DNA from: Candidatus Omnitrophota bacterium
Lineage (GTDB): Bacteria > Omnitrophota > Gorgyraeia > Zapsychrales > Aceulaceae
Reading direction: 5' to 3'
Length of the DNA stretch: 64,000 nucleotides
Assembly: GCA_029564765.1 (NCBI GenBank)
Contig: JAKQPK010000004.1
Coordinates: 27,716 to 91,715, forward strand
The notes under the pieces are model-generated. The model saw only the letters and a list, made by a program, of their open reading frames with translations. It had not been told where the DNA came from and searched no databases. The first letter of the stretch is position 1, and the number at the start of each line of letters is the position of its first letter. Positions 632 through 53,878 of the stretch are shown in pieces. The translations under genes and the position numbers were made by a program.

Positions 632-2781
<2,150 letters not shown>

Positions 2782-2791
2782 CAAGGATTTT

Positions 2792-29402: not shown

Positions 29403-30316
29403 AGAGAACTGTTATCATTATAACCATCTTGATCTTTAGCGTTTTTGTTGTTGTGGGATTCGCGCGTTTTTATTTGGATAAATATCGATCAAAAATAGAG
29501 ATCGTCGATCATGCCATTCCTGTTCAGGTCGAGAAGGCGCAAACGCGTACGATGAATCGAAGCTTGGAGTATGTGGGCAATGTCAGAGCTCAAGAAGAAG
29601 CGCTGATCTATCCTAAGGTTCCAGGAAAGCTGATCGAAAAAATAAAAGTAGAAGGGGATGCGGTAAAAAAAGGTGATGTGCTCATGTATATCGACCGTGA
29701 TGAAGTAGGCTTGCGCTTTGAAAAAGCTCCTGTCGAGAGCCCAATGGATGGTGTCGTCGGAGGGATATCTGTTGACCTCGGAGAACATCTAACTACGCAA
29801 ACCGCGGTTGGCTTGATCGTTAAAATGGATCAGATGAAGATCGTGATCGATATTCCTGAGATCTATGCCACAAAGATCTTTTTTGATCAAGCTGTTCATT
29901 TGCAGTTCGATGCGTATCCTGGTGATATCTTTAATGGCCGTATCACGAAGATCAGCCCGATCGTGAATACGGCAAACCGATCTTTTCCCATAGAGATCCT
30001 TATCCCTAATCCTGAGGATAAATTAAAATCAGGCATGTTCGCGAAAGTAGAGATCGTGATCGAGGCGCATCAAGACGCTATCGCGGTACGCAAAGAAGCG
30101 ATCATGGGTAAAGAGCCTAACGCGTATGTTTATGTTATCAACAACGATACTGCACAATTACGCGGCGTTACATTGGGAATTCGCAGCGCGGATCTAGTGG
30201 AGGTTACAAGCGGTGTTGATCCAGATGATGCAGTTGTGATCATGGGTCAGCAACGCCTTTTTGATGGAGCGAAGGTACGTGTTGATACGCGATCCCGGCA
30301 GGAGTTCAAGCTATGA
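29399..30316 (+). CDS. RND efflux periplasmic adaptor (MFP/HlyD family)
   Basis: N-terminal TM anchor, biotinyl-lipoyl-like and beta-barrel regions. Overlaps flanking genes by 4 nt. Confidence 0.8.
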   Translation: MKRTVIIITILIFSVFVVVGFARFYLDKYRSKIEIVDHAIPVQVEKAQTRTMNRSLEYVGNVRAQEEALIYPKVPGKLIEKIKVEGDAVKKGDVLMYIDRDEVGLRFEKAPVESPMDGVVGGISVDLGEHLTTQTAVGLIVKMDQMKIVIDIPEIYATKIFFDQAVHLQFDAYPGDIFNGRITKISPIVNTANRSFPIEILIPNPEDKLKSGMFAKVEIVIEAHQDAIAVRKEAIMGKEPNAYVYVINNDTAQLRGVTLGIRSADLVEVTSGVDPDDAVVIMGQQRLFDGAKVRVDTRSRQEFKL

Positions 30317-33300
30317 ACCTCCCTGAATTCGGCGTAAAACGTCCTGTCACCAATTTGATGATCTTTTCCGCGATCATTGTGTTAGCGATCTATAGCTTAT
30401 CACGTTTAGGTATCGACTCCATGCCAAAGATCGAACCTCCCGTGATCACGGTCATTTCCTCTTATCCGGGCGCTAGCCCTGAAGACGTGGAGGTTAAGGT
30501 CACAGAGCCTCTCGAGAATCAATTGGCGACAACACCCGGTCTGGAAAAGATCATCTCGCATTCCAGCGATGGGTTGTCCCTTATTTCGCTAAAATTTTCT
30601 TGGGAAACCGATCTTGATGCCGTTTCCAACGATATCCGTGACCGAATCGAGCTCGCCAAGCGATTTTTGCCAGATATCCCAGATGAAATGGACCTTCCAT
30701 TTATCTACAAGTTCAACACATCAAATATCCCGATCCTGTTTTTAGGGATCACCGGTCAGCAATCCTACGCGGAACTTTACGATATCATCGATAAGCGGGT
30801 CGCCGACTCATTACGCCAATTACCAGGTGTTGGAACGGTTGAGCTGATCGGAGGACTTGAGAGGCAGATCAATGTTTGGGCTGACCGCCAACGCCTAGAA
30901 GGCTACGGCCTTTCTGTTAATGACCTAGAAAACGCGTTACGCCAGGAGAATATTTCACAGCCTTTAGGCAAACTGAAATCCGGCTTAACGGATTATCTTG
31001 TTCGTTTACCTGGTGAATTCGCTAGCCCAAAAGAAATAGACAAGGTCATTCTCGCAAGGCAAGGGAATAAGCTTGTTTATTTGAAAGACGTCGCGCGTAT
31101 CGAGGATGGCTTTAAGGAAGTTGTTCTGAACGTCCGTATCAATCGTGCACCTGGCCTTCTTTTGATGATCCAAAAACAAACCGACACGAATACCGTTGAG
31201 GTCGCTCAGCGGGTCAAAAAAAGGCTAGATGAACTGCAAGGGGCCCTTCCCACGGATATCAAGATGTTCACGATCTTCGACAATTCACAGGATATCATAG
31301 ACTCGCTCAACAATCTTAAGTCAACTGTATGGATCGGGATCGTTCTGGTCATTTTTGTTGTTTGGTTCTTCTTGCGTCGTCTTTTACCGAGCATCATCAT
31401 CGCCCTTACGATCCCTTTTTCCTTGCTGATCGCATTTATTTATTTATTTTTGAGCGGACGAACGATCAATGTCATCAGCCTTTCTTCCTTGGCGATCGCC
31501 GCGGGGATGATCGTGGATAACGCCATTGTTATTGTGGACAATGTTTACCGCAAGATCGAACATGGCAACCGGCCGAATGAAGCGGCGATCTTTGGATCTA
31601 AAGAAATGTTTTTGTCCATCGCCGCATCAACATTTACGACAGTCGTTGTTTTCTTGCCAATGCTTTTTCTAACAGGGGTTGTTGGTATCATGTTCGGCGA
31701 GCTCGCGATCATCGTGACGGTTACCTTGCTCGCCTCGCTATTCACGTCCTCAAGCTTTACCCCGATGTTATGTTCAAAATGGCTCATGCCTTCTAACGTA
31801 ATTGCCCAAAAAGTTCGACGTAATAACTTTTATGCCTTGTCTGAGAACGTTTTTAGGTCCTTGGAAAATATTTACGCAGCGATGCTTGCGTGGGCACTGC
31901 GTCACAAGAAGTTCGTGATGACGATGTTCGCGGGAGTTTTTGTGGCGACTTTATTCTTAACGCCTTTTATCGGTAACGAGTTTTCTCCGGAAGAGGATAC
32001 CGGCGATCTGAGGCTCACGATCAATTTACCGCTTGGAACACGCCTGGAAGAAACAGATCAGATAGCGAGACGTGTCGAAGAGATCATACAGACACATGTC
32101 CCTGAGGCAAAATTTGTTTTTTGTCGTACAGGTGACGCCCCTGGCCGCGCGCGGGCAAGCGGCCAAGAAACAGGGCCGCATATCATTACGAGTGGCGCCA
32201 AGCTTGTGCCTAAGACAGAGCGAAAACGATCAGATAAGGAGATCGCTCAGTTTTTAAGAAATGAATTTCGAAAGATACCTGGCGTCCTGAAGATCAACGT
32301 TTCCACAGGAAATCCCATTGGACGTCTTATTTCTGGAACAGGCGGAAAAACGGTTCAGGTGGAGATCGTTGGGAATTCTTTTGAAGAAACAGATAGGGTG
32401 GCGAATACCATTAAGACTATGATGGAAAAGATCCCTGGGACGGTCGATGTTTCTATCTCTCGAGAGTTGAACAGGCCAGAGCTCATTATTGAGATCAACA
32501 GGGAAAAAGCAGCTGTTTTAGGGCTTACGATGAATGATATCGCCAAAAATCTAAACACCGCGATCGCGGGATCCACCGCGACAAAATATCGCGAAAAAGG
32601 CGAAACTTATGACATTGTCGTCCGCTTAGAAGAATCGTCACGTCAGAAGATCGAAGACCTCGAAAACCTTTCGATCTTATCACCAGCAAGAAATCAACAG
32701 ATCAAGTTGTCCAATATCGCAACGATCGCTGAAGTGCTGGGGCCTGTCAATATTGAACGACAAAATCGTGAACGCGTTGTCCGCGTGGAATGCAATACGT
32801 TCAAGCGCTCTTCGGGCAAGGTGGTTGACGATATTAAAAAAGAGCTGAAGAACATTGTTTTGCCGTCCAATATCATGGTCAGCATCGGTGGAGAGGCGGA
32901 TGAGCAGCGCAAAGCCTTTGGCGACCTTGGCTTACTTTTGCTTTTGGGCGTAACTCTTGTATACATGATCATGGCGGCACAATTTGAATCACTCGTCGAT
33001 CCGTTCATCATCATGTTCTCGATCCCTTTTACTTTTGTAGGTATTATTTTGGCGATGTTCTTGACGGGAACAACATTAAGCGTGATCAGTTATCTAGGCA
33101 TCATCATGCTTATGGGTATTGTTGTTAATAACGCGATCGTTTTGATCAGTTATATCATTATCTTGCGCAGGAGGGGAGCGTCCATGCAAGAGGCGGTAAC
33201 GGTGGCAGGGAAAGAGCGTCTACGTCCTGTCTTGATGACCACGGTAACGACACTTGCGGGATTCTTACCTCTAGCGTTCTCTCAAGGGGTCGGATCAGAA

Positions 33301-33435
33301 ACATGGCAGCCTTTAGGGATCACGATGTCTGGCGGGCTCGCTGTTTCAACGATGATCACGATGATCTTTGTCCCCACATTTTATGCTATTATACACAAAG
33401 AAAGGCCGAAAAATAAGGACGGTGCTCATGCTTAA
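30313..33435 (+). CDS. RND efflux pump inner-membrane component (AcrB/HAE1-like)
   Basis: 1040 aa, 12-TM topology with two large periplasmic loops and conserved AcrB-type TM motifs. Confidence 0.9.
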   Translation: MNLPEFGVKRPVTNLMIFSAIIVLAIYSLSRLGIDSMPKIEPPVITVISSYPGASPEDVEVKVTEPLENQLATTPGLEKIISHSSDGLSLISLKFSWETDLDAVSNDIRDRIELAKRFLPDIPDEMDLPFIYKFNTSNIPILFLGITGQQSYAELYDIIDKRVADSLRQLPGVGTVELIGGLERQINVWADRQRLEGYGLSVNDLENALRQENISQPLGKLKSGLTDYLVRLPGEFASPKEIDKVILARQGNKLVYLKDVARIEDGFKEVVLNVRINRAPGLLLMIQKQTDTNTVEVAQRVKKRLDELQGALPTDIKMFTIFDNSQDIIDSLNNLKSTVWIGIVLVIFVVWFFLRRLLPSIIIALTIPFSLLIAFIYLFLSGRTINVISLSSLAIAAGMIVDNAIVIVDNVYRKIEHGNRPNEAAIFGSKEMFLSIAASTFTTVVVFLPMLFLTGVVGIMFGELAIIVTVTLLASLFTSSSFTPMLCSKWLMPSNVIAQKVRRNNFYALSENVFRSLENIYAAMLAWALRHKKFVMTMFAGVFVATLFLTPFIGNEFSPEEDTGDLRLTINLPLGTRLEETDQIARRVEEIIQTHVPEAKFVFCRTGDAPGRARASGQETGPHIITSGAKLVPKTERKRSDKEIAQFLRNEFRKIPGVLKINVSTGNPIGRLISGTGGKTVQVEIVGNSFEETDRVANTIKTMMEKIPGTVDVSISRELNRPELIIEINREKAAVLGLTMNDIAKNLNTAIAGSTATKYREKGETYDIVVRLEESSRQKIEDLENLSILSPARNQQIKLSNIATIAEVLGPVNIERQNRERVVRVECNTFKRSSGKVVDDIKKELKNIVLPSNIMVSIGGEADEQRKAFGDLGLLLLLGVTLVYMIMAAQFESLVDPFIIMFSIPFTFVGIILAMFLTGTTLSVISYLGIIMLMGIVVNNAIVLISYIIILRRRGASMQEAVTVAGKERLRPVLMTTVTTLAGFLPLAFSQGVGSETWQPLGITMSGGLAVSTMITMIFVPTFYAIIHKERPKNKDGAHA

Positions 33436-33751: not shown

Positions 33752-35308
33752 ATGAAAAAGAACCGAGATTCTTGGTCATCGCGCTTAGGCATTATCATGG
33801 CCGTTGCGGGATCGGCTATCGGCCTGGGTAATTTCCTTAGGTTTCCCGCGAAGGTCGCCATGAATGGCGGTGGGGCGTTCATGGTTCCATACTTTATTTC
33901 ATTATTGCTCTTAGGCGTGCCTTTGGTCTGGGTGGAGTGGACGCTTGGCCGTTATGGCGGCGGCTTTGGGCACGGGACAGCGCCTGGCATCTTTCATAGT
34001 ATCTGGCAGAAAAATCGCTTTATTAAATACTTTGGCGTCATTGGCATATTTGGCCCTTTAGTTATTTTTTCGTATTATCTTTTTATTGAATCATGGACTC
34101 TTGCCTATAGCGTCTTTTCTTTTCTTGGAAAATACCAGTTGATCACTGACCAGCAGGGGATGAAGGCCTTTTTGTCCGGCTACCAAGGTCTGACGCAAAA
34201 TCAATATTTTTCCAGCATTATGCCAGCATACACATTCTTTCTTGTGACATTCATTGCGAATATCGTGATCATTTACCATGGTATCAAAAAAGGGATCGAA
34301 AAATTTTGCAGGATCGCGATGCCATTATTATTTTTCTTTAGCGTGATCCTCTTTGTTCGTGTCTTGACCCTTGGGACCCCTGATCCATTAAAGCCGGATT
34401 GGAACATCGTCAACGGCCTTGGTTTTGTCTGGAATCCAGACTTTTCTTCACTCTTGAACGCAAAAGTCTGGCTTGAAGCAGCAGGGCAGATCTTTTTTAC
34501 CCTCAGCGTCGGTATTGGCGTTATATTGACCTATGCGAGTTATTTATCAAAAGCGGACGATGTCGTCTTGTCCGGCACGACCGCGATCAGCACCAATACG
34601 GTCGCTGAAGTCATCTTGGGCGGGACGATCATTTTGCCAGCGGCATTTGTTTTCTTTGGCCCCAACGATACGCAATCGGTCGCGAATTCTGGCATTTTCA
34701 ATCTTGGCTTTGTGACAATGCCTTTGATCATCAACCAATTGCCTTTCGCGCAAATATTTGGCTTTGCCTGGTTCTTTCTTCTGTTCCTTGCCGGCATCAC
34801 TTCATCTGTCTCGTTGGCTCAACCAGCGGTCGCTTTTCTTGAAGATGAATTCAATATCTCTCGCAAAAAAGCTGTTGGTATCTTCGCGATCGTTGCCTTT
34901 ATTTTATGTCAACCTGCGATTTTTTTCTTGAAGAACGGGGTTGTTGATGAGCTTGATTTTTGGGGAGGAACGTTCTTTTTGGTCCTTTTTGCGACCGTTG
35001 AAGTCATCCTCTTTTCCTGGGTTTTTGGTATGAATAAAGCCTGGGATGAGATCCATCAGGGAGCAGATATGCGCATACCAAGGATCTACAGGTTCATTAT
35101 CAAATACATCACTCCTGCCTTTTTATTCATCATCTTAGGTGTTTGGCTCTTTCAAGAATGGCTACCGCTTATTATGATGAAGAATGTCGCGGCCAGCGAT
35201 CAGCTCTATATTTTATTGACACGCGCAGGTCTGCTGTTTTTGCTATGCGTCCTTGCAGGGCTTGTCCATTTTGCCTGGAAAAAAAGAAAAATTCCGCAGA
35301 GATCGTAA
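33752..35308 (+). CDS. sodium-dependent transporter, NSS/SNF family
   Basis: GLGNFLRFP...GGGAF N-terminal NSS signature and 12 TM helices. Confidence 0.85.
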   Translation: MKKNRDSWSSRLGIIMAVAGSAIGLGNFLRFPAKVAMNGGGAFMVPYFISLLLLGVPLVWVEWTLGRYGGGFGHGTAPGIFHSIWQKNRFIKYFGVIGIFGPLVIFSYYLFIESWTLAYSVFSFLGKYQLITDQQGMKAFLSGYQGLTQNQYFSSIMPAYTFFLVTFIANIVIIYHGIKKGIEKFCRIAMPLLFFFSVILFVRVLTLGTPDPLKPDWNIVNGLGFVWNPDFSSLLNAKVWLEAAGQIFFTLSVGIGVILTYASYLSKADDVVLSGTTAISTNTVAEVILGGTIILPAAFVFFGPNDTQSVANSGIFNLGFVTMPLIINQLPFAQIFGFAWFFLLFLAGITSSVSLAQPAVAFLEDEFNISRKKAVGIFAIVAFILCQPAIFFLKNGVVDELDFWGGTFFLVLFATVEVILFSWVFGMNKAWDEIHQGADMRIPRIYRFIIKYITPAFLFIILGVWLFQEWLPLIMMKNVAASDQLYILLTRAGLLFLLCVLAGLVHFAWKKRKIPQRS

Positions 35309-35373: not shown

Positions 35374-35426
35374 TTACTAATTCCCGATATAATGAATTGG
35401 GTCATTTCCATTCTCAGTTACTAATT
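35374..35426 (+). promoter_or_regulatory. two copies of TTACTAATT (35374-35382 and 35418-35426) flanking a TATAAT, upstream of pstS
   Basis: Exact 9-nt direct repeat 44 nt apart. Candidate regulator-binding sites. Confidence 0.3.
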
Positions 35427-35442
35427 GAAAGAATTTCGTCAA

Positions 35443-36305
35443 TGTTCACAAAACGACACGCGTTTCTGGTTTTTACGCTTTTAATATTCTGTACATCCTG
35501 CATTTTTAATCCACCCTCAAAAAATTCTTTGCAGATCAAAGGTTCGGACACAATGGTAAACCTAATACAGGCTTGGGCAGAGGATTTCATGTCCAAAGAC
35601 CCTGATGTGTTCATTGCTGTTACTGGCGGTGGTTCCGGAACAGGCATAGCCAGCTTGATCAATGGCACATGCGATATCGCGATGACGTCTCGCAACATCA
35701 AACCAAAAGAGATCAAGCTTGCTCAAAAACGCGGGATCGATCCTTTTGAGATCATTGCCGCCTTAGACGGCCTAGCCGTTGTCGTTCACCCTAAAAATCC
35801 AGTTAAAAAACTTACTATTGATCAGCTAGCTCAGATCTTTTCCGGTCATATCACTAATTGGAAAGATGTTGGCGGGATGGACCAAAGTATCGTTGTCCTT
35901 TCTAGGGAAGTAAATTCAGGGACACATATTTATTTTAAAGAACATGTTCTTCGGCAGAATAAAAAAGACTCGAAAGAAGAATTTGCTCCAACAGCGCTTT
36001 TGCTCTCATCGTCACAAGCCATCGCCGATGAAGTCGCGACAAATACAGGCGCAATAGGATATTACGGAATGGGTTATATTTCGCCAAAACATAAGGCGAT
36101 CGCCATTGCGCTTGATGAGCGTTCACCGTATGCGGATCCAACGATCGAAAATGTCATAAACCAGACTTATCCAATATCTAGGCCGCTATATTTGTACACA
36201 AAGGGTGAGCCTCAAGGCGCGATCAAGATGTTCATTGATTTTGCCCATTCACCGCAAGGGCAGGAGATAGTTTTGATCAATGATTTTGTTCCACTGCAGA
36301 AATAA
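35443..36305 (+). CDS. pstS: phosphate ABC transporter substrate-binding protein
   Basis: KGSDTMVNLIQAWAEDF...TGGGSGTGIASLINGTCDIAMTSR PstS signature. Start moved to MFTKRHAF with signal peptide. Confidence 0.85.
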
Positions 36306-36309
36306 TAAT

Positions 36310-37179
36310 ATGCGAAAGATCAAAGAATTTATTATTGAAAAGCTGATATTCTTCTGCGGCCTCGCGTCCATCTTTTTTGTTATCCTGATCTTCCTTTTCT
36401 TACTGAAGGAAGGGCTTTCCTTGCTGACGATCGTCGGCCCCTTTGAATTCCTTGCTGGAAAAAGCTGGTATCCGATCTCAGAACCGCCTCAGTTGGGTAT
36501 TTTACCATTGATCCTTGGCTCATTATTTGTGACTATTGGCGCGGCGATCATCTCTGTACCGATCGGGATAGCCTGCGCGGTCTATATCGCTGAGATCGCG
36601 CCCGCTAAGATCAAAGAGGTCCTTAAAGCGGGTATTGAGCTTTTAGCGGCGATCCCAAGCGTTGTGCTGGGGTTTATCGGCATGATGACCCTCGTTCCCT
36701 GGGTCAAGAATTTATTTGACATCCCCACAGGGTTAACTGCTTTTTCAGGTTCTATTATGCTCGCGTTCATGGCAATGCCAACGATCGTATCTATCGCCGA
36801 AGACGCGCTCTATTCTGTTCCGAAGTCTTATAAAGAAGGAGCTTTGGCTCTGGGGGCCACGCATTGGCAGACCATCTACCGCGTGATCCTGCCAGCGGCT
36901 AGTTCCGGGATCGTCGCGGCGGTCATGTTAGGTATCGGGCGAGTGATCGGAGAAACCATGGCAGTGATGATGATCACAGGCAACGCAGCAGCGATACCAA
37001 AAAGTATCCTGCAGCCCGTGAGAACATTGACGGCGACTATCGCTGCTGAAATGGGTGAGACCGTGGTCGGCAGTGAGCATTATTTTGCTTTGTTCGCGAT
37101 CGGCATTGTTTTATTCGTGATCAGCTTCGCGATCAATGTGACATCTGACTTTTTCTTGCATAAGGATCAAAGAGTATGA
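36310..37179 (+). CDS. pstC: phosphate ABC transporter permease PstC
   Basis: ABC permease with EAA-type loop; position in operon. Confidence 0.85.
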   Translation: MRKIKEFIIEKLIFFCGLASIFFVILIFLFLLKEGLSLLTIVGPFEFLAGKSWYPISEPPQLGILPLILGSLFVTIGAAIISVPIGIACAVYIAEIAPAKIKEVLKAGIELLAAIPSVVLGFIGMMTLVPWVKNLFDIPTGLTAFSGSIMLAFMAMPTIVSIAEDALYSVPKSYKEGALALGATHWQTIYRVILPAASSGIVAAVMLGIGRVIGETMAVMMITGNAAAIPKSILQPVRTLTATIAAEMGETVVGSEHYFALFAIGIVLFVISFAINVTSDFFLHKDQRV

Positions 37180-38021
37180 CATCACTTCAACGACAAAAGA
37201 TCGCATTTGCCCTTTTATTTCTCGCGAACCTTTTGGTCATTGTTCCGGTAGGATTGATCGTCTTCATTATCATCCAAAAAGGATGGCCGGCCATGACATG
37301 GCAGTTCATTACCGATATCCCACGCCAGGGAATGCGTGCCGGCGGCATCTTTCCCGCGATCGTGGGGACCATCTATTTGGTCTCTGGGGCTATCGTTTTC
37401 GCTTTACCCGTCGGTTTGCTGGCAGCGATCTATTTAAGTGAATACGCGAAAGACAACCTTTTAACACGCATCATCAAGCTCGCGATCGTTAACCTCGCGG
37501 GTGTTCCATCGGTCGTTTATGGACTTTTTGGCCTCGTTCTCTTTGTGTCTTTTTGCAAATTCGGCGCGTCGATCCTTTCTGGATCCTTGACACTTGGCAT
37601 TATGATATTGCCGATCATCATCACCGCGTCACGTGAGGCCTTAGAGAGCGTTCCTCATGTTTTTCGAGAGGTCAGCCTATCTCTTGGCGCGAGTAAATGG
37701 CAGACTATTCGCCACATTGTTCTGCCCAACGCCATCCCTGGAATTATTACCGGAACGATCCTGGGGATCGGCCGGGCCGCGGGGGAAACCGCGCCTATCC
37801 TTTTTACGGTAGCCGCTTTTTATCTGCCACGCCTTCCTTCGTCGGTTTTTGATCAGGTAATGGCCTTGCCGTATCACTTGTACGTGATCTCAACACAGGT
37901 CCCTAACGTTGATCCTAAGATCACCTATGGAACAGCGTTGGTTCTATTGATATTGGTGCTTTTTGTTAATTTGATCGCGATCATCATTCGCGCGCGATTT
38001 CGGAAGAAGAAAAAATGGTAA
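37176..38021 (+). CDS. pstA: phosphate ABC transporter permease PstA
   Basis: Second permease paralog, 4-nt overlap with pstC. Confidence 0.85.
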   Translation: MTSLQRQKIAFALLFLANLLVIVPVGLIVFIIIQKGWPAMTWQFITDIPRQGMRAGGIFPAIVGTIYLVSGAIVFALPVGLLAAIYLSEYAKDNLLTRIIKLAIVNLAGVPSVVYGLFGLVLFVSFCKFGASILSGSLTLGIMILPIIITASREALESVPHVFREVSLSLGASKWQTIRHIVLPNAIPGIITGTILGIGRAAGETAPILFTVAAFYLPRLPSSVFDQVMALPYHLYVISTQVPNVDPKITYGTALVLLILVLFVNLIAIIIRARFRKKKKW

Positions 38022-38761
38022 AGATCGATATCCAACGATTAAATATTTGGTTCGGGGCAGCCCAAGCGCTCAAGAATATCACCATGCAGGTGAAAAAAAA
38101 CGAGATCCTTTGCGCGATTGGCCCATCGAACAGCGGAAAAACATCATTCTTGCGCATGCTCAATCGCCTTAATGATCTTACGCTTAGCTTTCGTATGTCC
38201 GGCAGCGTTCTTTTGGATGGCCGCGATATCACAAAAATAGATATCGAGCTGATCCGCAAGAAGATCGGGATGGTGTTCGCGATGCCTTCGCCTTTGCCTT
38301 TATCCGTCTTCGACAATGTCGCATACGGGGTTCGCATGAGCGGTGTCCGTAATAAACACAGCCTCGAGGAGGCTGTGGAAACAGCCCTCAAGCAAGCGTA
38401 TCTTTGGCAAGAAATGAAGGATCGCCTGCATGAATCTGCTTTTAAGCTCTCAGGAGGGCAGCAGCAAAGACTTTGTATCGCTCGGACATTGGCTGTTCAG
38501 CCTGAAGTGATCTTGTTCGATGAACCATGTTCTGGCCTAGATCCGATCTCAACGGCAAAAGTGGAAGAAGCCATGCTAAAGTTGAAAAAAGATTATACGA
38601 TCATCCTTGTGACCAACAATGTCAAGCAGGCGGCTCGCGTCGGCGACCGAACAGCGTTCTTTCTGACCGGAGAACTGATCGAGCTCGATCAGACCGAAAA
38701 AATATTTACAGCGCCTTCTGACCGCCGCACGGATGATTATATTCGAGGGAGATTTGGTTGA
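38015..38761 (+). CDS. pstB: phosphate ABC transporter ATPase PstB1 with degenerate Q-loop and H-loop
   Basis: Walker A GPSNSGKT, signature LSGGQQQR and Walker B ILFDEPC are intact. Q-loop reads GMVFAMPSP (Gln to Ala) and H-loop reads LVTNN (His to Asn). Confidence 0.85.
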
Positions 38762-39507
38762 TGGCAAAGATCGAGATAAAAAACCTTGACCTATGGTATG
38801 GCGATTTTCAAGCGTTAAAAAATATCAATTTAGCGCTGGAAGAAAAACGCATCATCGCCGTTATCGGTCCATCCGGCTGTGGTAAATCCACGCTACTGCG
38901 TGTTTTTAATCGCATGAACGACCTTGTGGAAGGCATTAAAATTAAAGGCCAGTTCGTCATAGACGGTGAGAATATCCTGGACCAGAGGACCAACCTCGTG
39001 ACCCTTCGCAAGAAAGTGGGCATGGTCTTTCAACGCCCGAATCCTTTTCCGCTATCCATCTACGACAACCTTGTTTTTGGGCTTAAGGTCCACGGCATCA
39101 AACGCGACCTTGATCCATTCGTTGAGAAAAGTTTAAAAGCGGTCTTTCTTTGGGATGAGCTAAAAGATCGTCTAAACCGTTCTGCGTTTAGCTTGACGCT
39201 AGAGCAACGTCAACGCTTGTGCATCGCGCGCCTGATCGCTGTTAAACCGGATATCCTTTTGATGGATGAACCCTGTTCCGCCCTGGATCCACAATCAACG
39301 ACTGGCATCGAAGACCTTATGCGCGAGTTAAAAAAGAATTTCACGATCATCATTGTCACGCACAACATGCAACAGGCCGCCCGCGTCTCGGACGAAACGG
39401 GATTCATGCTGCTTGGAGAGCTTGTTGAATTCAATAAAACAGAGGTGATCTTTACAAAACCCCAAGATAGTCGGACCGAGGGTTATATCACAGGACGATA
39501 CGGTTAA
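38758..39507 (+). CDS. pstB: phosphate ABC transporter ATPase PstB2 with degenerate signature motif
   Basis: Walker [11 protein letters not shown]-loop GMVFQRPNP, Walker B LLMDEPC and H-loop VTHNM are intact. Signature reads LTLEQRQR instead of LSGGQQQR. Confidence 0.85.
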
Positions 39508-39516
39508 GGAGGCATC

Positions 39517-40200
39517 ATGCAAAGACATTTTGACGAAGATCTACGTAATTTGAACGCGAACATCATTAAAATGGCATCATTAGCAGAAGATGCCATTCAG
39601 AACGCCACGCGGGCGCTTAAAGACCAAGACCCGGCTTTGGCGCGTACTGTCATAAACAATGACCAACAGATCGATGAAATGGAGCTCTTCATTGAAGAGC
39701 AAGCGATCGACCTCTTGGCCCGTATGCAGCCAATGGCCAGCGACCTTCGTTTTATAACGACAGGAATGAAGATCAACGCGGAACTTGAACGTATCGCGGA
39801 TCTTGCTGTCAATATCGCCCATCGCGTCCTTGAGCTTTCGGGGATGCCGCATTTGAAGCCATTGGTCGATATCCCAAAACTTTCGGCACTGACCTCAAGC
39901 ATGGTCAAGAACGCGATCGATGCGTTCGTAAATCATGATGAAAGTATCGCGCGCAAGGTCATCCTTTCTGATTCTGAGGTCGACCAATTGAATAATGTTA
40001 TTCGTCAAGAGCTGGTCAATGACTACATGATCAAAGACAGCAAGACAGTGACCCGCGCCGTGCCTTTGCTTTTGATCGCGCGACACTTGGAAAGGATCGG
40101 CGATCACGCGACGAATATTGCGGAAGATGTCATTTATATGGTCCACGCCAAGATCGTGAAGCACCATCCTGAAAAGTTAGACGACGGACAATCCATTTAA
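39517..40200 (+). CDS. phoU: phosphate signaling complex protein PhoU
   Basis: Two PhoU repeats containing the conserved ExxxD-type motif (ELERIADLAVNIA, ERIGDHATNIAEDVIYM). Confidence 0.9.
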   Translation: MQRHFDEDLRNLNANIIKMASLAEDAIQNATRALKDQDPALARTVINNDQQIDEMELFIEEQAIDLLARMQPMASDLRFITTGMKINAELERIADLAVNIAHRVLELSGMPHLKPLVDIPKLSALTSSMVKNAIDAFVNHDESIARKVILSDSEVDQLNNVIRQELVNDYMIKDSKTVTRAVPLLLIARHLERIGDHATNIAEDVIYMVHAKIVKHHPEKLDDGQSI

Positions 40201-40212
40201 CGCGGAGGATCC

Positions 40213-41763
40213 ATGCCCACTTCTTTAGATCTTCAGGTCAAGCCGTTAGGTAAGAAGGCAGGCTTTGATAACGAAAAATACCTCTGCGAACAAGCCAATG
40301 AGATCCTCGAGCGCGTAAAGCGGTTCGATAACAAGCTTTATCTTGAGTTTGGCGGAAAGCTTTTGTTTGATTATCACGCTTCTCGTGTCTTACCGGGTTT
40401 TGACCCAAACGTCAAGATCAAACTCCTCAAGCGTCTTGAAAATGACGCGGACATTATCTTGTGTATCCACGCGGGCGATATTGAGCGACGAAAGATCCGC
40501 GCGGATTTTGGGATCACTTATGATGTCGACGCGTTAAAGCTGATCGATGACCTTAAGGACTGGGGGATCGATATCTGCGCGGTCGTGATCACTCGCTTCA
40601 ATCAACAACCTGCCGCGACCATTTTTAAGAACAAGCTTGAACGATTGGGGGTACGTGTTTACACGCACGCCTTCACGAAAGGATATCCGACGAATGTTGA
40701 CCTGATCGTTAGCGAAGAAGGTTACGGCGCGAATGAATATATCTCAACGACCAAGCGCCTTGTGATCGTGACCGGCCCAGGGCCGGGCAGCGGCAAACTT
40801 GCCACGTGCCTCTCACAGCTTTATCATGAACATAAACAAGGGATCAACGCGGGCTACGCGAAATTTGAAACATTCCCAATTTGGAGCATTCCGCTCAAGC
40901 ATCCCGTTAATGTCGCCTATGAATCCGCAACGGCTGACATCAAGGATTTTAATATGATCGATCCTTTTCATTTGCAAGCGTACGACAAACTGGCCATCAA
41001 TTACAATCGTGATGTGGAAGTATTCCCGGTGGTCAAACGTATCCTTGAAAAGATCACGGGTGATGAAATTTACCATTCGCCAACAGATATGGGAGTCAAT
41101 CGCGCAGGATTCGGCATTACCGATGATCAAGCGGTCCAGGAAGCCGCGTGCCAAGAGATCATCCGACGTTATTTTCGGTATAAATGTGAGTACGCGCTGG
41201 GCCTGGTCGATAAGGAATCCGTTGAGCGAGGAGAGCTGCTGATGAAGGAGATGAACATCAACACCAGTGATCGCAAGGTCGTCGAAGCCGCCCGAACGGC
41301 CGCGGAACAAGCGCAACAACAAGGCAAAGGCAATAAAGGGATATTTTGCGGGGCAGCTATCGAACTGGCCGATGGCCGTATCATCACGGGCAAGAATTCC
41401 TCGCTCATGCACGCGGCATCAAGCCTGATCTTAAACGCGCTCAAGGAATTGGCCGATGTCCCTGATAAGATCCCGCTATTGTCCAAAACATCCATTGACT
41501 CGATATCGAACCTGAAAAAAGATATTTTAAAGATGAAAACATTAAGCCTTGATCTAGATGAAGCCTTGATCAGCTTAAGTATTAGCGCGACAACAAGCCC
41601 TGTTTCACAACTGGCCTTAGAAAAGATCAGTGAATTACGTGGCTGCGAGATGCACATGACCCATATCCCAACGCCAGGGGACGAAGCTGGCTTACGCCGG
41701 TTAGGGATCAATCTGACAACAGATCCAAACCTATCGTCCAGCAGCCTCTGTGACTATTCTTAA
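40213..41763 (+). CDS. UPF0371/DUF1846-like protein of unknown function
   Basis: N-terminal FDNEKYL...LYLEFGGKLLFDYHASRVLPGFDPNVK resembles the UPF0371 family. Starts 13 nt after phoU. Confidence 0.5.
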   Translation: MPTSLDLQVKPLGKKAGFDNEKYLCEQANEILERVKRFDNKLYLEFGGKLLFDYHASRVLPGFDPNVKIKLLKRLENDADIILCIHAGDIERRKIRADFGITYDVDALKLIDDLKDWGIDICAVVITRFNQQPAATIFKNKLERLGVRVYTHAFTKGYPTNVDLIVSEEGYGANEYISTTKRLVIVTGPGPGSGKLATCLSQLYHEHKQGINAGYAKFETFPIWSIPLKHPVNVAYESATADIKDFNMIDPFHLQAYDKLAINYNRDVEVFPVVKRILEKITGDEIYHSPTDMGVNRAGFGITDDQAVQEAACQEIIRRYFRYKCEYALGLVDKESVERGELLMKEMNINTSDRKVVEAARTAAEQAQQQGKGNKGIFCGAAIELADGRIITGKNSSLMHAASSLILNALKELADVPDKIPLLSKTSIDSISNLKKDILKMKTLSLDLDEALISLSISATTSPVSQLALEKISELRGCEMHMTHIPTPGDEAGLRRLGINLTTDPNLSSSSLCDYS

Positions 41764-46031: not shown

Positions 46032-46364
46032 ATGAAAAAAAGCGTCAACACCATCCGCGGGATCGCGCTGGATCTTTCAAGCCTCGTTTCTTATCAGAAA
46101 AATTCTGTGATCAGCCGTGAGATCATCAAAGGCGAAAGTGGAACAGTAACGCTTTTCGCCTTTGACAAAAATGAAGGATTAAGCGAGCACACAGCTCCGT
46201 TCGATGCGATGGTCATTGTTTTGGACGGCTCCGTAAAGATCTGCATCAGCAAAAAACCGCATCTTCTTAAAAAAGGTCAGTCCATTATTATGCCGGCGCA
46301 TCAACCGCACAGCCTTAAAGCTATCAAACGATTTAAAATGTTATTGATTCTCATAAAAAAATAA
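46032..46364 (+). CDS. cupin domain protein
   Basis: Cupin motifs G(X)5HXH-like (SEHTAPFDAMVIVLDGS) and PAHQPHSL. TAATG-coupled to the response regulator. Confidence 0.6.
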   Translation: MKKSVNTIRGIALDLSSLVSYQKNSVISREIIKGESGTVTLFAFDKNEGLSEHTAPFDAMVIVLDGSVKICISKKPHLLKKGQSIIMPAHQPHSLKAIKRFKMLLILIKK

Positions 46365-47068
46365 TGTTTTCTTCGCCACAAAAGATCCTCATCGTCGAAG
46401 ACGATCGAAATATATCCAAACTTGTTCGCTATAATCTAGAAAAAGCTGACCTCGAATGCCTGACGTGCATCTGCGGGGAAGAAGCGTTCGAGATACTAGA
46501 TCAAAAACCGATCGATCTGATCATTTTGGATATTATGCTCCCGAAAATGGACGGCCTTTCTGTCTGCCGTGAGATCCGCAACAACGAACGATTAAAGCAT
46601 ATACCGATCGTAATACTCACCGCGAAAGGCGAGGAGATCGATAGGGTCGTCGGCCTTGAGTTGGGCGCGGATGATTATATGGTCAAACCCTTTAGCCCTC
46701 GCGAGCTTGTCTTAAGGGTCAAAGCGATCTTGCGCCGCAAAAAGACCGTTGAAACAAAAAAAGATATCGTGTCGATCGGCGATATTTGCGTGGACATCCC
46801 TCGCCATAAGGCTACGGTCAAAGATAAAGAGATCGAATTGACCGCGATGGAGTTCAAGCTCCTGACAGTGCTCATGGAGCGACGCGGACGCGTTCAGACG
46901 CGCGACACACTGCTTGCGGATGTCTGGGGGATGAGCTCTGAGATCTATACACGCACGATCGATACCCATGTCAAACGCCTTCGGCAAAAGTTAGGCAAGG
47001 CCGGAAAGCGCATTGAGACCATAGTTGGCGTTGGATACAAGATGCGAGATGACATCGATGCGGATTAA
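46364..47068 (+). CDS. OmpR/PhoB-family response regulator (probable PhoB/PhoP of this Pho locus)
   Basis: Receiver domain (ILIVEDD...LDIMLPKMDG) plus winged-helix output domain. Its neighbours are Pho-related genes. Confidence 0.8.
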   Translation: MFSSPQKILIVEDDRNISKLVRYNLEKADLECLTCICGEEAFEILDQKPIDLIILDIMLPKMDGLSVCREIRNNERLKHIPIVILTAKGEEIDRVVGLELGADDYMVKPFSPRELVLRVKAILRRKKTVETKKDIVSIGDICVDIPRHKATVKDKEIELTAMEFKLLTVLMERRGRVQTRDTLLADVWGMSSEIYTRTIDTHVKRLRQKLGKAGKRIETIVGVGYKMRDDIDAD

Positions 47069-48830
47069 GCTGCATTGGAAGCTGACTCTGTTCTTTTGCT
47101 CAGCGGCACTCTTAGGGCTTGTTGCCGGTTACTTTCTTCTAACGACCCCTCTTCAGGATTATCTTGAAAAAAGCCTAAAGAAAAACCTTCACGCCCAGCT
47201 ATCCCTTGGGCGTAAATTTCTTGTCTCCCAAATAGATCTTTTAAGGGACGCGACCCCTTTTGACGCGATCTCTGATGATCTGGGCCGTCAATTGAACGTC
47301 CGGGTCACGATCATTGATAATAGCGGAACCGTATTAGGGGACAGTGATCTTGACCAAGAGAAATTAAGGACCGCTGAGAACCATAGCGATCGCCAAGAGA
47401 TCCAGCAAGCTGCCAAAACGGGTTTCGGCTTTATCAAGCGATACAGCTATACGATCAAGGATTATCTGCTATACGTCGCCATCCCTTTTTCCTATAACGA
47501 AAAAAATGCGTTTTTGCGATTTGCCATCCCGCTTACCGATGTTAGGGCCCTTCAAGAAAAATTCCAGCTAACGATCGCGCTCACACTATTACTCGTTTTT
47601 ATCCTAAGCCTTGCGCTGACTTTCTTGATATCCAGCATTGTTTCACGTCCTCTGTCGCAGATGGCCAACATCGCCAAGGCAATGGCGCAAGGGGATTTTT
47701 CCATAAAGCCGTCCATCTACTCGACCGATGAGATAGGGGACTTGGCTTCTGCCTTGACACATATGTCCGATGAGATCAACAATAAGATCGAACGGATCCG
47801 TCACGAAAGCGCTAAATTAGATGCTGTGCTCTCAAGCATGTTCGAGGGGATCATGGTCGTCAACAGCCGCGGCGAGATCATTTTAATGAACCCATCCTTA
47901 AAAAAGCTGTTCTTTGTGGACACGGAACCTTTAGGCCGCAAGCCGATCGAAGCGATCCGCAACGCGCTTGTCCAACAGGTCACAGATCAAATACTGGGAC
48001 TAAGCCAAAATTTTATCTCTCAAGAAGTCCAGATCACTCATCCCAACGACAAGATTTTGCGCGTCAACGGGACGCCGATCATCAGGGATAATCGGCTTGA
48101 AGGCGCGGTATTGGTTTTCCACGACATTACTGAACTGCGGCGCCTGGAAAGGATCCGCCAAGAGTTCGTCGCCAATGTTTCACATGAATTACGCACACCC
48201 ATCTCCAGCATCAAAGGTTACGCGGAGACCTTACTATCAGGAGCCATCGAAGATAAGGAGAACGCGAAAGATTTCATTAATATTATTTATCAGGACAGTA
48301 ACCGCCTGGCCAGCCTGATCAGCGACCTTTTGGACCTGGCTAAGATCGAATCTGAAAAATTACAAATGGAATTCCTGCCGGTTGAGATCAAGCCCTTAGT
48401 CCTGCGCTGCATCAGTATCCTTAAAAAAACGATCGATGAAAAACAATTAACCGTCTCCTGCGAGATCTCTGAAAAACTGCCTAAGGCCATGGCTGATGAC
48501 GCGCGTTTGTCGCAGGTACTGTTGAACTTATTGGATAATGCTGTCAAATACACTCCTCAAAAAGGAACGATCAGGATCGGCGCGCAAGTAGCCGAGAAAT
48601 ATATCCAGATCGATATTTCTGATACGGGTATCGGCATCCCACAAGAAGATATTCCGCGTATTTTTGAACGATTTTATCGTGTCGACAAAGCCCGCTCGCG
48701 GGAATTAGGCGGCACCGGCCTTGGCCTTTCTATCGCCAAGCACATCGTCCTATCGCACGGCGGCCAGATCTGGGCCCACTCCAAACCCGGCGAAGGAACG
48801 ACCTTTAGCTTCACCATCCCTGAAGCATAA
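47049..48830 (+). CDS. sensor histidine kinase (PhoR-like) with periplasmic sensor, HAMP, PAS and HisKA/HATPase
   Basis: H-box FVANVSHELRTPISSI, N-box LLDNAVKYT and G-boxes DTGIGIP / GGTGLGLSI. Confidence 0.8.
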   Translation: MTSMRIKLHWKLTLFFCSAALLGLVAGYFLLTTPLQDYLEKSLKKNLHAQLSLGRKFLVSQIDLLRDATPFDAISDDLGRQLNVRVTIIDNSGTVLGDSDLDQEKLRTAENHSDRQEIQQAAKTGFGFIKRYSYTIKDYLLYVAIPFSYNEKNAFLRFAIPLTDVRALQEKFQLTIALTLLLVFILSLALTFLISSIVSRPLSQMANIAKAMAQGDFSIKPSIYSTDEIGDLASALTHMSDEINNKIERIRHESAKLDAVLSSMFEGIMVVNSRGEIILMNPSLKKLFFVDTEPLGRKPIEAIRNALVQQVTDQILGLSQNFISQEVQITHPNDKILRVNGTPIIRDNRLEGAVLVFHDITELRRLERIRQEFVANVSHELRTPISSIKGYAETLLSGAIEDKENAKDFINIIYQDSNRLASLISDLLDLAKIESEKLQMEFLPVEIKPLVLRCISILKKTIDEKQLTVSCEISEKLPKAMADDARLSQVLLNLLDNAVKYTPQKGTIRIGAQVAEKYIQIDISDTGIGIPQEDIPRIFERFYRVDKARSRELGGTGLGLSIAKHIVLSHGGQIWAHSKPGEGTTFSFTIPEA

Positions 48831-50486: not shown

Positions 50487-51299
50487 ATGAAAACTCTTAA
50501 TAAAATTCTGCTTACCGGGCTTGCGGTCTTGAGTATCGCAATGCCTGCTTTTGCAGAAAAGATCGTTGTTACGGGCTCAACAACAGTTTTACCGCTTTCA
50601 CAAAAAGCCGCGGAAGTTTTTATGCAAAACAATCCTAATGCGGATATTTCTATACGCGGCGGGGGTTCCGGTGTTGGGATAGCTTCCATCATTGATGGTA
50701 GTTGTGATATTGCTAATTCATCACGACCGATCAGAGATGTTGAGCTTCAAAAAGGTGCTTCCAACGGCCGCGACATCAAGGCACACATTGTTGCTATGGA
50801 TGGGATCGCGATCGTTGTCCACCCTTCGAACGGGATCAGCGCTTTGACCAAATCCCAAGTAAGAGATATTTATACCGGGAAAATTTCCAATTGGTCTCAA
50901 GTTGGAGGAAAAAACGAAAAGATCGTCGCCATCTCTCGTGATACCTCCAGCGGAACCTTTGAAGCGTTCATGGAGCTTGTTTTGGATAAGCAAAAGGTGC
51001 GTCCTGATGCCATTATGCAAGCATCAAATCAGGCGATCGCAACAACTGTCGCACGTACGCCAAATGCGATCGGCTACGTTGGACTTGGCTTTCTTTCCGG
51101 TGATATTAAAGCGGTTACAATCGACGGTGTAATGCCTTCCAAGGAAACGGTTTTACTTGGGAAATATAAGGTTGGACGTCCGCTGTTCATGTATACCAAC
51201 GGCGCTCCTAAAGGCCTCGCTAAAGATTATCTTGACTTCATCAAAAGTGCTCAAGGACAAAGCATTGCTGATGAGTTAGGGTATGTTGGATTAAAATAA
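50487..51299 (+). CDS. pstS: phosphate ABC transporter substrate-binding protein, second copy
   Basis: TGSTTVLPLSQKAAEVF...GGGSGVGIASIIDGSCDIANSSR. Confidence 0.85.
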   Translation: MKTLNKILLTGLAVLSIAMPAFAEKIVVTGSTTVLPLSQKAAEVFMQNNPNADISIRGGGSGVGIASIIDGSCDIANSSRPIRDVELQKGASNGRDIKAHIVAMDGIAIVVHPSNGISALTKSQVRDIYTGKISNWSQVGGKNEKIVAISRDTSSGTFEAFMELVLDKQKVRPDAIMQASNQAIATTVARTPNAIGYVGLGFLSGDIKAVTIDGVMPSKETVLLGKYKVGRPLFMYTNGAPKGLAKDYLDFIKSAQGQSIADELGYVGLK

Positions 51300-51314
51300 G
51301 AAAACAAGCCACCA

Positions 51315-51355
51315 GACAAAGGAGCTTTGGTTTTCTAAAACAAAGCTCCTTTGTC
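51315..51355 (+). other. perfect 15-bp stem-loop between pstS2 and pstC2
   Basis: GACAAAGGAGCTTTG-gttttctaaaa-CAAAGCTCCTTTGTC read directly, followed by TCTTAAAATTTT. Confidence 0.65.
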
Positions 51356-51381
51356 TCTTAAAATTTTGTATAATAAGTATT

Positions 51382-52272
51382 ATGTCATTATTTCGTCTTA
51401 AAGAAAAGATCATACAAGGCGTTTTTACTGTTTTGGCATTCTCATCATTGCTTTTTCTTGTTGGGATCATCTTTGTCCTCTTTAAAGAAGGCCTTCCAAT
51501 CTTTAAGGATGTTAAAATATCAGATTTCTTATTTGGCCGTTTTTGGTATCCTACATACGAACCTCCAGAGTTCGGCGTCTTGCCATTGATCGTTGGATCA
51601 TTCTATGTTTCCTTAGGGGCAATGTTCGTGTGTGTTCCTCTGGGTATCGGAAGCGCTCTTTATATCAATGAGATGGCAAGCTACAAGCAAAAAGCTATCT
51701 TGAAGCCTCTCATTGAGATCCTGGCAAGCGTTCCATCTATTATCTATGGCTTCTTTGCTATGGCTATCCTCGCGCCATTCTTGCAGAAAACGTTCAACAT
51801 CCCTATCGGTCTTTGCACCCTGAACGCAAGTATTATTTTAGGGGTAATGGCAACGCCGACGGTTTGTAGCCTTGCTGAAGATGCCCTCAGCTATGTCCCG
51901 CGCTCCTTTCGCGAAGCTTCTTTTGCCGTAGGCGCGACCCGCTGGCAAACATTGATCAAGGTTGTTATTCCAGCCGCAGGATCAGGGATATCGACTGCTG
52001 TGATCCTTGGTATGAGCCGCGCGATCGGAGAAACCATGACCGTCTTGATGGCCGCTGGAGGAGCGGCGATCATTCCCACATCTATTTTTGATCCTGTCCG
52101 CCCAATGACCGCCGCCATTGCCGCGGAAATGGGAGAAGCTCCTGTAGGGGGAGACCATTATCATGCGCTTTTTGCCATTGCATTGGCTTTATTTTTAATA
52201 ACATTCTTTTTTAATATTCTTGCGGAGATCATTAGCCGGCGTTTTCGCATCAAATTGGGATTATCCGGATGA
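51382..52272 (+). CDS. pstC: phosphate ABC transporter permease PstC, second copy
   Basis: Paralogous to 36310-37179. Confidence 0.85.
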   Translation: MSLFRLKEKIIQGVFTVLAFSSLLFLVGIIFVLFKEGLPIFKDVKISDFLFGRFWYPTYEPPEFGVLPLIVGSFYVSLGAMFVCVPLGIGSALYINEMASYKQKAILKPLIEILASVPSIIYGFFAMAILAPFLQKTFNIPIGLCTLNASIILGVMATPTVCSLAEDALSYVPRSFREASFAVGATRWQTLIKVVIPAAGSGISTAVILGMSRAIGETMTVLMAAGGAAIIPTSIFDPVRPMTAAIAAEMGEAPVGGDHYHALFAIALALFLITFFFNILAEIISRRFRIKLGLSG

Positions 52273-53120
52273 ACCAAAACACTATTCAAAAGATTGGCTT
52301 TGGATTCCTATCGTTTTCTGTTATCGCAACGATCTCATTCTTGTTCATTATTATTTTCTTTATCGCAGCCCGTGGTATCCGTGTTATTTCCTGGGAGTTC
52401 TTAACAGCCGGCCCTCGCGATGGTATGACAGCAGGCGGAGTCGCGCCAGCCATCGTTGGAACTTTTTATTTAACCCTGGGAGCGATTATTTTCGCTCTGC
52501 CCTTAGGCATCGCATGTGCGATCTATCTTTGTGAATATTCGCCTAAGGGGGCCGTTGTCAACATTATCCGCTTAAGTATTAACAATTTAGCCGGCGTCCC
52601 TTCTGTTGTCTTCGGGCTTTTTGGCTTAGCAGTGTTCGTAAAATTCTTCAACTTTGGCGCCTCTATTCTTTCGGGAAGTTTAAGCCTTGGTATTTTGGTC
52701 TTACCGCTCATTATTTCAGCAACTCAGGAAGCATTGCTGGCGATCCCGCATTCAATACGTGAAGCCTCCATGGCCTTAGGTGCGACAAAATGGCAAACCA
52801 TTAAAAAGATTGTTTTGCCTGCAGCCGTTCCAGGAATCTTAACAGGAACGATCCTTAGTATCGGCCGTGTCGCAGGAGAGACCGCTCCTATTTTATTTAC
52901 TGCGGCAGCATTTTATTTAAAAGGATACCCGAAATCCGTTTTTTCAGAGGTCATGGCCCTTCCTTACCACATCTACGCTCTGATGACAGAAGGCGTTTAT
53001 CCTGAAAAACAAACAGCGATCGCCTATGGCTGCAGTTTTATCTTGCTGGTCTTGGTTCTTTTGGTTTCCGGCCTGGCGATCTTTATCCGTCAACGACAGA
53101 GGAGTTATTATCATGGATAA
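52269..53120 (+). CDS. pstA: phosphate ABC transporter permease PstA, second copy
   Basis: Paralogous to 37176-38021. Confidence 0.85.
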
Positions 53121-53877
53121 TCTACCGATCAAAATGCGCGCGCATGGCGTCGACTTTTTTTACGGCCAACACCACGCCCTAAAGAACATCAATCTCGATA
53201 TCGCCAAAAACCATGTCACGGCGATCATCGGGCCATCGGGATGTGGAAAATCAACCTTTATCCGCCTTTTAAACCGTATGAATGAAATGGTGCCCAACAC
53301 GACCTTAACGGGCAAGATCTATCTTGATTGCCTGGATATTTTAAGCCCGTGCATCGATCCGGCGGAAGTCCGACGTCGCGTCGGCATGGTCTTTCAAAAA
53401 CCAAATCCGTTTCCAAAAAATATCTTTGAAAATATCAGCTACGGTCTTGAAGTCAACGGGATCAAGAACAAACAGCTTATTGAAGATCGTGTCGTCGAGT
53501 CGTTAAAAAAATCTGCTATTTGGGATGAGGTCAAGGATAGACTGCATGATAGCGCGCTAAGGCTTTCCGGGGGTCAGCAGCAGCGTCTTTGCATCGCGCG
53601 TTGTCTGGCGATCCAGCCGGAAGTCCTCTTGTTCGATGAGCCGTGCGCCAGCTTGGATCCGATCTCAACACGCAAGATCGAAGAACTCATTTTAGAGCTA
53701 AAAAAAGACTACACGATTGCCATTGTCACGCACAACATGCAACAGGCCGCGCGTATTTCAGATTATACGGGATTTTTTCTTTTGGGGGACCTGATCGAAT
53801 TTGATAAAACAGAAAAGATCTTTAAAGCGCCGCATGACTCTCGAACGGAAGACTATATTACGGGAAGGTTCGGATAA
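53113..53877 (+). CDS. pstB: phosphate ABC transporter ATPase PstB, fully canonical
   Basis: [45 protein letters not shown] and [13 protein letters not shown] are all consensus. Start moved to MDNLPIK after GAGGAG. Confidence 0.85.
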
Positions 53878-53878
53878 A

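Follow-up and report, generated by a model that had tools for sequence, protein, structure and literature searches.

The stretch analysed here, referred to as the window, comprises 64,000 nucleotides of the genome of a Candidatus Omnitrophota bacterium (assembly GCA_029564765.1, contig JAKQPK010000004.1, forward-strand positions 27,716 to 91,715). It contains two operons for the ATP-binding cassette (ABC) phosphate importer Pst, the first of which encodes two tandem ATPase subunits, PstB1 and PstB2, with complementary departures from the consensus ATPase motifs. All genes of this operon lie on the forward strand. The phosphate-binding protein is encoded by pstS1 (35397..36305; Pfam PBP_like_2, E=2.9e-51), whose start codon is uncertain and which has an orthologue at the same position in those related loci that reach far enough upstream. 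Two permease genes follow, pstC1 (36280..37179) and pstA1 (37176..38021), both matching Pfam BPD_transp_1; identity to pstC1 is 80-89% in most loci of the Omnitrophota type. The stop codon of pstA1 overlaps the start codon of pstB1 in the junction ATGGTAA. pstB1 (38015..38761) encodes a protein with a canonical signature motif and a deviant catalytic core, hereafter type T1, and pstB2 (38761..39507) a protein with a canonical catalytic core and a deviant signature, type T2. The operon continues with phoU1 (39517..40200; Pfam PhoU, E=3.3e-47), which is kept 3' of the pstB pair in related loci. The mechanically called open reading frame (ORF) of PstB2 opens at a TTG at 38758, but the true start is probably the ATG at 38761, which overlaps the stop codon of pstB1 as TGATG and fits the 248-residue length of the homologues; a GGGAGA box lies upstream of this ATG. 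The stop/start overlap between the two genes suggests translational coupling.

Both proteins are PstBs by family membership and by context. Against the NCBIfam equivalog model for PstB, TIGR00972 (cutoff 343.2 bits), PstB1 scores 346.6 bits, a narrow pass, PstB2 367.9 bits, and PstB3, the ATPase of the second Pst operon (53113-53877), 389.8 bits, all three over their full length. The pair is embedded in the pstS-pstC-pstA-pstB-phoU gene order that is expected of PstB. PstB1 and PstB2 are 50% identical to each other, and PstB1 matches Escherichia coli PstB (PDB 9k3x) over its full length (phmmer, E=5e-83). Only PstB3 has the full set of catalytic motifs, that is, the Q-loop Gln, the LSGGQ signature, and the H-loop His; PstB1 and PstB2 each lack part of it.

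An earlier note on this DNA had proposed that PstB1 keeps Walker A, LSGGQ, and the Walker B Asp-Glu but has Ala in the Q-loop and Asn in the H-loop, that PstB2 has a canonical core and an LTLEQ signature, and that the PstB of the second operon is canonical throughout. The three-way alignment of the PstBs and the phmmer alignment to the E. coli PstB of 9k3x, the kind of comparison with a characterised PstB that the note had suggested, are both free of gaps in and beside the motifs, and they bear out all three statements. Because the alignments run gap-free through the motifs, LTLEQ sits exactly at the LSGGQ position and the Q- and H-loop residues are correctly assigned. In PstB1, the Walker A motif reads GPSNSGKT (38120-38143), with the Lys kept and the changes G46N, C47S, and S50T (E. 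coli numbering). The Q-loop MVFAMP (38270-38287) carries Ala89 in place of Gln, and the H-loop VTNNV (38609-38623) carries Asn201 in place of His. The signature LSGGQ (38447-38461) is canonical and the Walker B motif LFDEP (38513-38527) retains Asp-Glu, including the catalytic Glu, while Gly replaces Ala in the D-loop CSGLD (38528-38542). In PstB2, Walker A, the Q-loop, Walker B, and the H-loop (VTHNM, 39355-39369) are all canonical, and Leu-Glu replaces Gly-Gly in the signature LTLEQ (39193-39207). PstB1 thus deviates in more places than the earlier note had listed, namely also in Walker A, in the D-loop, and in residues flanking the H-loop.

These substitutions are strongly conserved. A joint alignment was built of 158 PstB1-type, 162 PstB2-type, and 154 canonical PstB sequences. 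In the canonical set, the Q-loop Gln, the H-loop His, and the signature Gly-Gly are each present in 100% of the sequences. PstB1-type sequences have Ala in the Q-loop in 99% and Asn in the H-loop in 100% of cases, and in PstB2-type sequences the signature Leu and Glu each reach 95%. The PstB1 type is further defined by invariant changes (E. coli numbering) in the A-loop (Y20F, still aromatic), the Q-loop (F103L), the D-loop (A183G), around the H-loop (I207L, M212V, and Q213K), and at the three Walker A positions already given; those of the PstB2 type, besides the signature, are K99R and I187Q. Most of the PstB1 changes lie in elements of its own nucleotide pocket, and the signature change of PstB2 lies in the element that closes the same pocket. 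Among the closest homologues of PstB1 (73-98% identical), all 120 listed have the Q-loop Ala, the H-loop Asn, CSGLD, and GP[SA]NSGKT, and keep both the signature [LI]SGGQ and Asp-Glu. All 120 listed closest homologues of PstB2 have L[ST]LE[QE][KR]QR, with Walker A, Q-loop, Walker B, and H-loop canonical. A profile made from divergent PstB1-type sequences retrieved 120 more listed proteins from a more distant T1 clade, every one with Ala, Asn, and SGLD; those with a name come from MAGs of Ignavibacteria, Melioribacteraceae, Verrucomicrobia, Kiritimatiellales, and other groups. The best 150 representatives of clusters at 50% identity include ∼10 PstB1-like and ∼8 PstB2-like proteins. Signature variants of the PstB2 type comprise LSLEQ, LTLEQ, LPLDQ, LPLEQ, LQLEQ, LSAEQ, and LSEEM, and an acidic residue replaces the second Gly in nearly all PstB2-type lineages.

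The two types occur together and in a fixed order. The earlier note had suggested a search of related genomes for pairs with like substitutions; a scan of species-representative genomes gave 80 loci, and in all 31 with enough downstream DNA a T1 gene was followed by a T2 gene as the next gene (L012 and L022 end before the partner gene and stand outside this count). The same succession was found in a high-GC metagenome-assembled genome (MAG; L082, LPLEQ), in L085 (LQLEQ), in a Verrucomicrobiae locus (L086, LPLDQ), in L087 (LTLEQ), and in a Melioribacteraceae locus (L088, LPLDQ). Approached in reverse, from PstB2-type proteins, T1 likewise precedes T2 in L089, whose query protein is labelled Sedimentisphaerales, and in L090 (LSAEQ), and the upstream partner of P0267 (signature LTEEQ) was left outside the pairing count. 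The order pstS, pstC, pstA, PstB1-type, PstB2-type is therefore found in 38 of 38 testable loci, with phoU next in most of those that reach far enough, and no exception to the T1-T2 pairing was found among the 38. The deviations in the Q-loop Gln, the H-loop His, and Gly-Gly are absent from the single-gene PstBs and from both tandem copies of Bacillaceae in the same scan, and both Enterococcus faecalis paralogues, PstB1 and PstB2, are canonical in a published alignment (PMC12096839).

Carriers of the pair are MAGs labelled Omnitrophota, Ignavibacteriota/Melioribacteraceae, Deltaproteobacteria, Planctomycetota (including Phycisphaerales and Sedimentisphaerales), Verrucomicrobiota (including Kiritimatiellales), and others. 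The nearest locus, L001, shares 98% protein identity, and named homologues at ∼75% identity are mostly from Candidatus Omnitrophota MAGs, with some from Planctomycetales/Planctomycetes, in keeping with an uncultured, Omnitrophota-like source as the probable origin of the window. No cultured carrier was found, and the entries in the examined clusters labelled Ignavibacteria, Melioribacteraceae, Verrucomicrobiae, Kiritimatiellales, Acidobacteriota, and Syntrophomonadaceae were all MAGs. In a neighbor-joining tree with the motif columns masked (midpoint-rooted, without support values), T1 (34/34) and T2 (31/31) are each monophyletic; the two clades are not sisters, and they show similar internal branching with the same lineages early in both, which fits long co-inheritance. 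The deviant residues are invariant across clades that are only ∼50% identical and come from several phyla. Over ten genome pairs, pairwise ratios of nonsynonymous to synonymous substitution rates (dN/dS) lay in the range 0.03-0.10 for pstB1 and pstB2 alike, with PstB1 under no weaker constraint than PstB2. Both genes are under strong purifying selection, and the pattern is due neither to chance nor to drift.

The arrangement of nucleotide-binding domains (NBDs) in PstSCAB gives these substitutions a common location. In the E. coli transporter (PDB 9k3x, 9k3s), which belongs to the same family and is encoded by the same kind of operon, PstA and PstC carry one PstB each, and, following the established ABC geometry, every ATP is bound jointly by Walker A/B from one PstB copy and LSGGQ from its partner (PMC12976172). 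The E. coli complex differs in that its PstB is a homodimer, with two identical consensus sites and two bound ATP. Three elements engage the gamma-phosphate (PMC7756269): it is sensed by the Q-loop Gln, which also couples to the membrane domain, and it is contacted both by the H-loop His, which matters for ATP hydrolysis, and by the signature motif. Placed in this geometry, the aligned core deviations of PstB1 and the signature deviation of PstB2 map to one composite site, and the second is consensus throughout. In a PstB1 homodimer both sites would be without the Gln and the His, and in a PstB2 homodimer both would be without Gly-Gly, so a complete site can arise only in the heterodimer. An obligate heterodimer is the best reading of the pair, given that the changes are complementary, that the two genes strictly co-occur, and that their stop and start codons overlap.

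We therefore consider it likely that PstB1 and PstB2 form a heterodimer in which one site is consensus and the other functionally degenerate. pstB1 and pstB2 would encode the two different NBD subunits of one phosphate importer, PstS-PstC-PstA-PstB1-PstB2. In the head-to-tail dimer, the PstB2 core would face the LSGGQ of PstB1 and form the consensus, hydrolytic ATP site. The PstB1 core, with neither Gln nor His and with an altered Walker A, would face the L-x-L-(E/D)-Q signature of PstB2 and form the degenerate one. Nucleotide binding at the degenerate site is probably kept because the A-loop aromatic residue, the Walker A Lys-Thr, and the Walker B Asp-Glu of PstB1 are conserved. Hydrolysis there is probably slow or absent because the Gln and the His are gone and the facing signature is altered. 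The degenerate site would thus most likely bind ATP so as to hold or prime the dimer, with little or no hydrolysis, and we place less confidence in this binding without hydrolysis than in the heterodimer itself. On this model the pump would spend ∼1 ATP per cycle instead of 2, and the NBDs would act asymmetrically on an already asymmetric PstC/PstA. The logic of one consensus and one degenerate site, first put forward in the earlier note, is supported by the motif alignment, co-occurrence, monophyly, and purifying selection. The permeases offer a further lead, if a weak one. In the EAA/coupling helix of PstA1, residues 164-173 read REVSLSLGAS in operons with the degenerate pair and REASLALGAT in canonical ones. 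The type-specific changes in this element, three in PstA (EASLALGAT to EVSLSLGAS) and two in PstC, are confounded by phylogeny; with that reservation, they may hint at which of the two permeases the deviant Q-loop of PstB1 touches.

Several points weigh against an obligate heterodimer with a degenerate site. The catalytic Walker B Glu is kept in every PstB1-type sequence examined, residual hydrolysis is therefore possible, and loss of this Glu has been called the hallmark of degenerate sites (PMC7544095). In the active site of MRP1 NBD2, replacement of the H-loop His by Asn or Gln preserved transport (PMC7756269), so the Asn alone need not abolish catalysis. The acidic residue at the second signature Gly could prevent or disfavour ATP-dependent closure at that site. 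Tandem PstBs are not always obligate heterodimers, since an excess of PstB2 can stand in for PstB1 in E. faecalis, a species with two canonical paralogues (PMC12096839). Finally, all carriers of the pair that were found are uncultured MAGs.

Other explanations of the pair start from the same residues. It is unlikely, in our judgement, that the deviant interface between PstB1 and PstB2 has evolved into a regulatory pocket, acting as a latch permanently occupied by ATP or ADP, or as a sensor of cytosolic phosphate or energy charge. Somewhat more doubtful still is the proposal that the deviant site is no ATP site of the usual kind: it would be ADP-specific, or a nucleotide-free latch in which the signature Glu or Asp takes the position of the gamma-phosphate, or a sensor of cytosolic phosphate or of the ATP/ADP ratio. 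The acidic replacement of the second signature Gly in nearly all lineages speaks for this proposal, as do the co-varying changes within one pocket (Walker A position 4, the H-loop Asn, and Q213K). However, PstB1 conserves the A-loop aromatic residue, Lys-Thr, and Asp-Glu as for Mg-ATP binding, and the site of the yeast exporter Pdr5, with its LNVEQ signature, still binds ATP.

We think it improbable that there is no heterodimer at all and that a PstB2 homodimer powers transport, while PstB1 binds ATP in an accessory or regulatory role, such as in PhoU/PhoR signalling. The tandem paralogues of E. faecalis are indeed non-equivalent, and overexpressed PstB2 makes up there for lost PstB1 (PMC12096839); PstB is also said to take part in PhoU/PhoR signalling in a reference listed in PMC12976172. 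Such a PstB2 homodimer would, however, have Leu-Glu signatures at both sites, at the position where every one of the 154 canonical PstBs has Gly-Gly, and the only canonical LSGGQ of the operon is on PstB1, where it is invariant. The strict co-occurrence, the fixed gene order, and the start/stop overlap fit a 1:1 assembly. Relaxed selection on a decaying redundant duplicate, which the fully canonical second pstSCAB-phoU system in the window might allow to be tolerated, has almost no chance of being correct: the low dN/dS of both genes, no higher in PstB1, and the invariance of the deviant residues across phyla effectively refute it, and the ORFs are intact and the changes complementary, not scattered.

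The heterodimer reading places the pair beside several known systems. Pairs of a consensus and a degenerate site have been described as frequent in exporters (PMC3971661, PMC7756269). As in the heterodimeric ABC exporters (TM287/288, TmrAB, BmrCD, TAP1/2, and CFTR/ABCC), two different NBDs are present (PMC3971661, PMC7756269), PstB1 and PstB2 being co-encoded throughout, and one NBD's core and the other NBD's signature deviate in the same composite site, the second site being consensus. Those exporters are of type IV, their NBDs are fused to the membrane domains, and their hallmark is the loss of the Walker B Glu. The Pst pair, in contrast, would belong to a type I, binding-protein-dependent importer with free NBD subunits, and PstB1 keeps the Walker B Glu, unlike TAP1, CFTR NBD1, TM287, and Pdr5. 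Its core changes are instead those of the Q-loop (Gln to Ala) and the H-loop (His to Asn), together with those in Walker A and the D-loop.

The nearest functional precedent is found in the yeast PDR transporters Pdr5 and Cdr1. The deviant signature at their first nucleotide-binding site, LNVEQ, has Glu at the same position as LSLEQ/LTLEQ, and the partner NBD has another residue in place of the H-loop His. The deviant site of Pdr5 holds ATP throughout the cycle without hydrolysing it. Pdr5 differs in that the Walker A Lys and the Walker B Glu are lost as well, and in being a eukaryotic full-length exporter; the resemblance is one of convergence and not of family membership. In gene arrangement, the closest counterparts are the tandem PstBs of Firmicutes (Bacillus subtilis PstBA/PstBB and E. 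faecalis PstB1/PstB2), in which pstS, pstC, and pstA are followed by a pair of neighbouring pstB genes. For B. subtilis, a model of the PstBA-PstBB heterodimer is available (PMC11466899). The present pair shares this adjacency but not the motifs, as both Firmicutes copies are canonical, and in our tree they fall outside the T1 and T2 clades. Degenerate sites in importers are already known, since RbsA and NupO, CUT2-type importers with fused NBDs, have one such site according to sequence analysis (PMC11466899); there a single polypeptide holds both NBDs, the Walker A Lys is missing from the degenerate site, and class and substrate are different. According to a 2025 paper on E. faecalis, no earlier study had compared tandem pstB paralogues (PMC12096839). 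In the open-access literature and bioRxiv preprints, no account was found of a PstB pair whose degenerate motifs complement each other, and an earlier one is possible.

A few sequences met in the searches depart further from the consensus. A metagenomic pst operon (L085:2465-4765) has three PstB-like genes in a row. Of these, the first resembles PstB1 (no Q-loop Gln, Asn in the H-loop) and the second PstB2 (LQLEQ); the third is deviant in core and signature (GPLGSGRT, with the Walker A Lys changed to Arg, FLNAAP, LNRGL, and ATNDN) and is directly followed by a GMP synthase gene, not by phoU. This third copy may be a non-catalytic regulator. Core and signature are likewise both deviant in the PstB-like cluster representatives P0326, P0346, P0364, P0378, P0382, and P0387, and one such doubly deviant representative has LPLDW, FDD, and ATNDL. 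In L029 (2646-3389), the PstB1-type gene has an in-frame stop within the first ∼23 codons of the tblastn match, attributable either to a start codon further on or to a mistake in sequencing or assembly; all motifs are still present in the rest of the ORF (2715-3389).

The second Pst system of the window (pstS2, pstC2, pstA2, and pstB3; 50487..53877, forward strand) is canonical in all PstB motifs and serves here as a comparison, with no part in the proposed heterodimer. Its operon has the order porin, pstS2, pstC2, pstA2, pstB3, low-molecular-weight phosphatase-like gene, phoU2. The porin (49170-50468), directly upstream of pstS2, is an outer-membrane protein of the Porin_5 family. The phosphatase-like gene (53801-54268), between pstB3 and phoU2, resembles low-molecular-weight phosphotyrosine phosphatase/ArsC (Pfam LMWPc). 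In L009, L010, and L015, loci in which the canonical pstB adjoins the operon with the degenerate pair, that pstB is immediately followed by a homologue of this gene. Genes for a PhoB-like response regulator (46364-47068) and a PhoR-like HAMP-PAS histidine kinase (47025-48830) lie 5' of this second operon, and together with the porin and the canonical pst operon they form a probable Pho regulon cluster. Downstream of the first operon, 13 bases 3' of phoU1 and on the same strand, a gene for a DUF1846 protein (40213-41763; N- and C-terminal domains, E=3.7e-169) may be co-transcribed with it. The genes directly 5' of that operon, for an RND pump of the AcrB family (30313-33435) and a sodium:solute symporter of the SNF family (33752-35308), are unrelated to the finding.

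The principle of one consensus and one degenerate site is already known. What appears to be new is its setting in a type I phosphate importer with free NBDs, and the combination of Q-loop, H-loop, and Gly-Gly to Leu-Glu changes with a retained Walker B Glu. The debate over whether importers need hydrolysis at both sites, and how much ATP they use per substrate, has drawn mainly on engineered mutants whose NBDs are homodimeric (PMC3971661). The pair described here offers a case from nature, a type I importer that is strongly conserved over several phyla and appears to work with a single consensus site, and the canonical Pst paralogue nearby in the same genome provides a built-in comparison. Every named database entry that we met for either partner is annotated plainly as PstB or as phosphate ABC transporter ATP-binding protein, and such annotation hides the asymmetry. 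If the lineages that carry the pair are largely anaerobic and energy-limited, the design might be an ATP-saving adaptation. Should the deviant interface be a regulatory pocket after all, this Pst would be a one-ATP, allosterically gated importer, and it would be the first natural type I importer in which ATP stoichiometry and the role of the second site could be tested directly.

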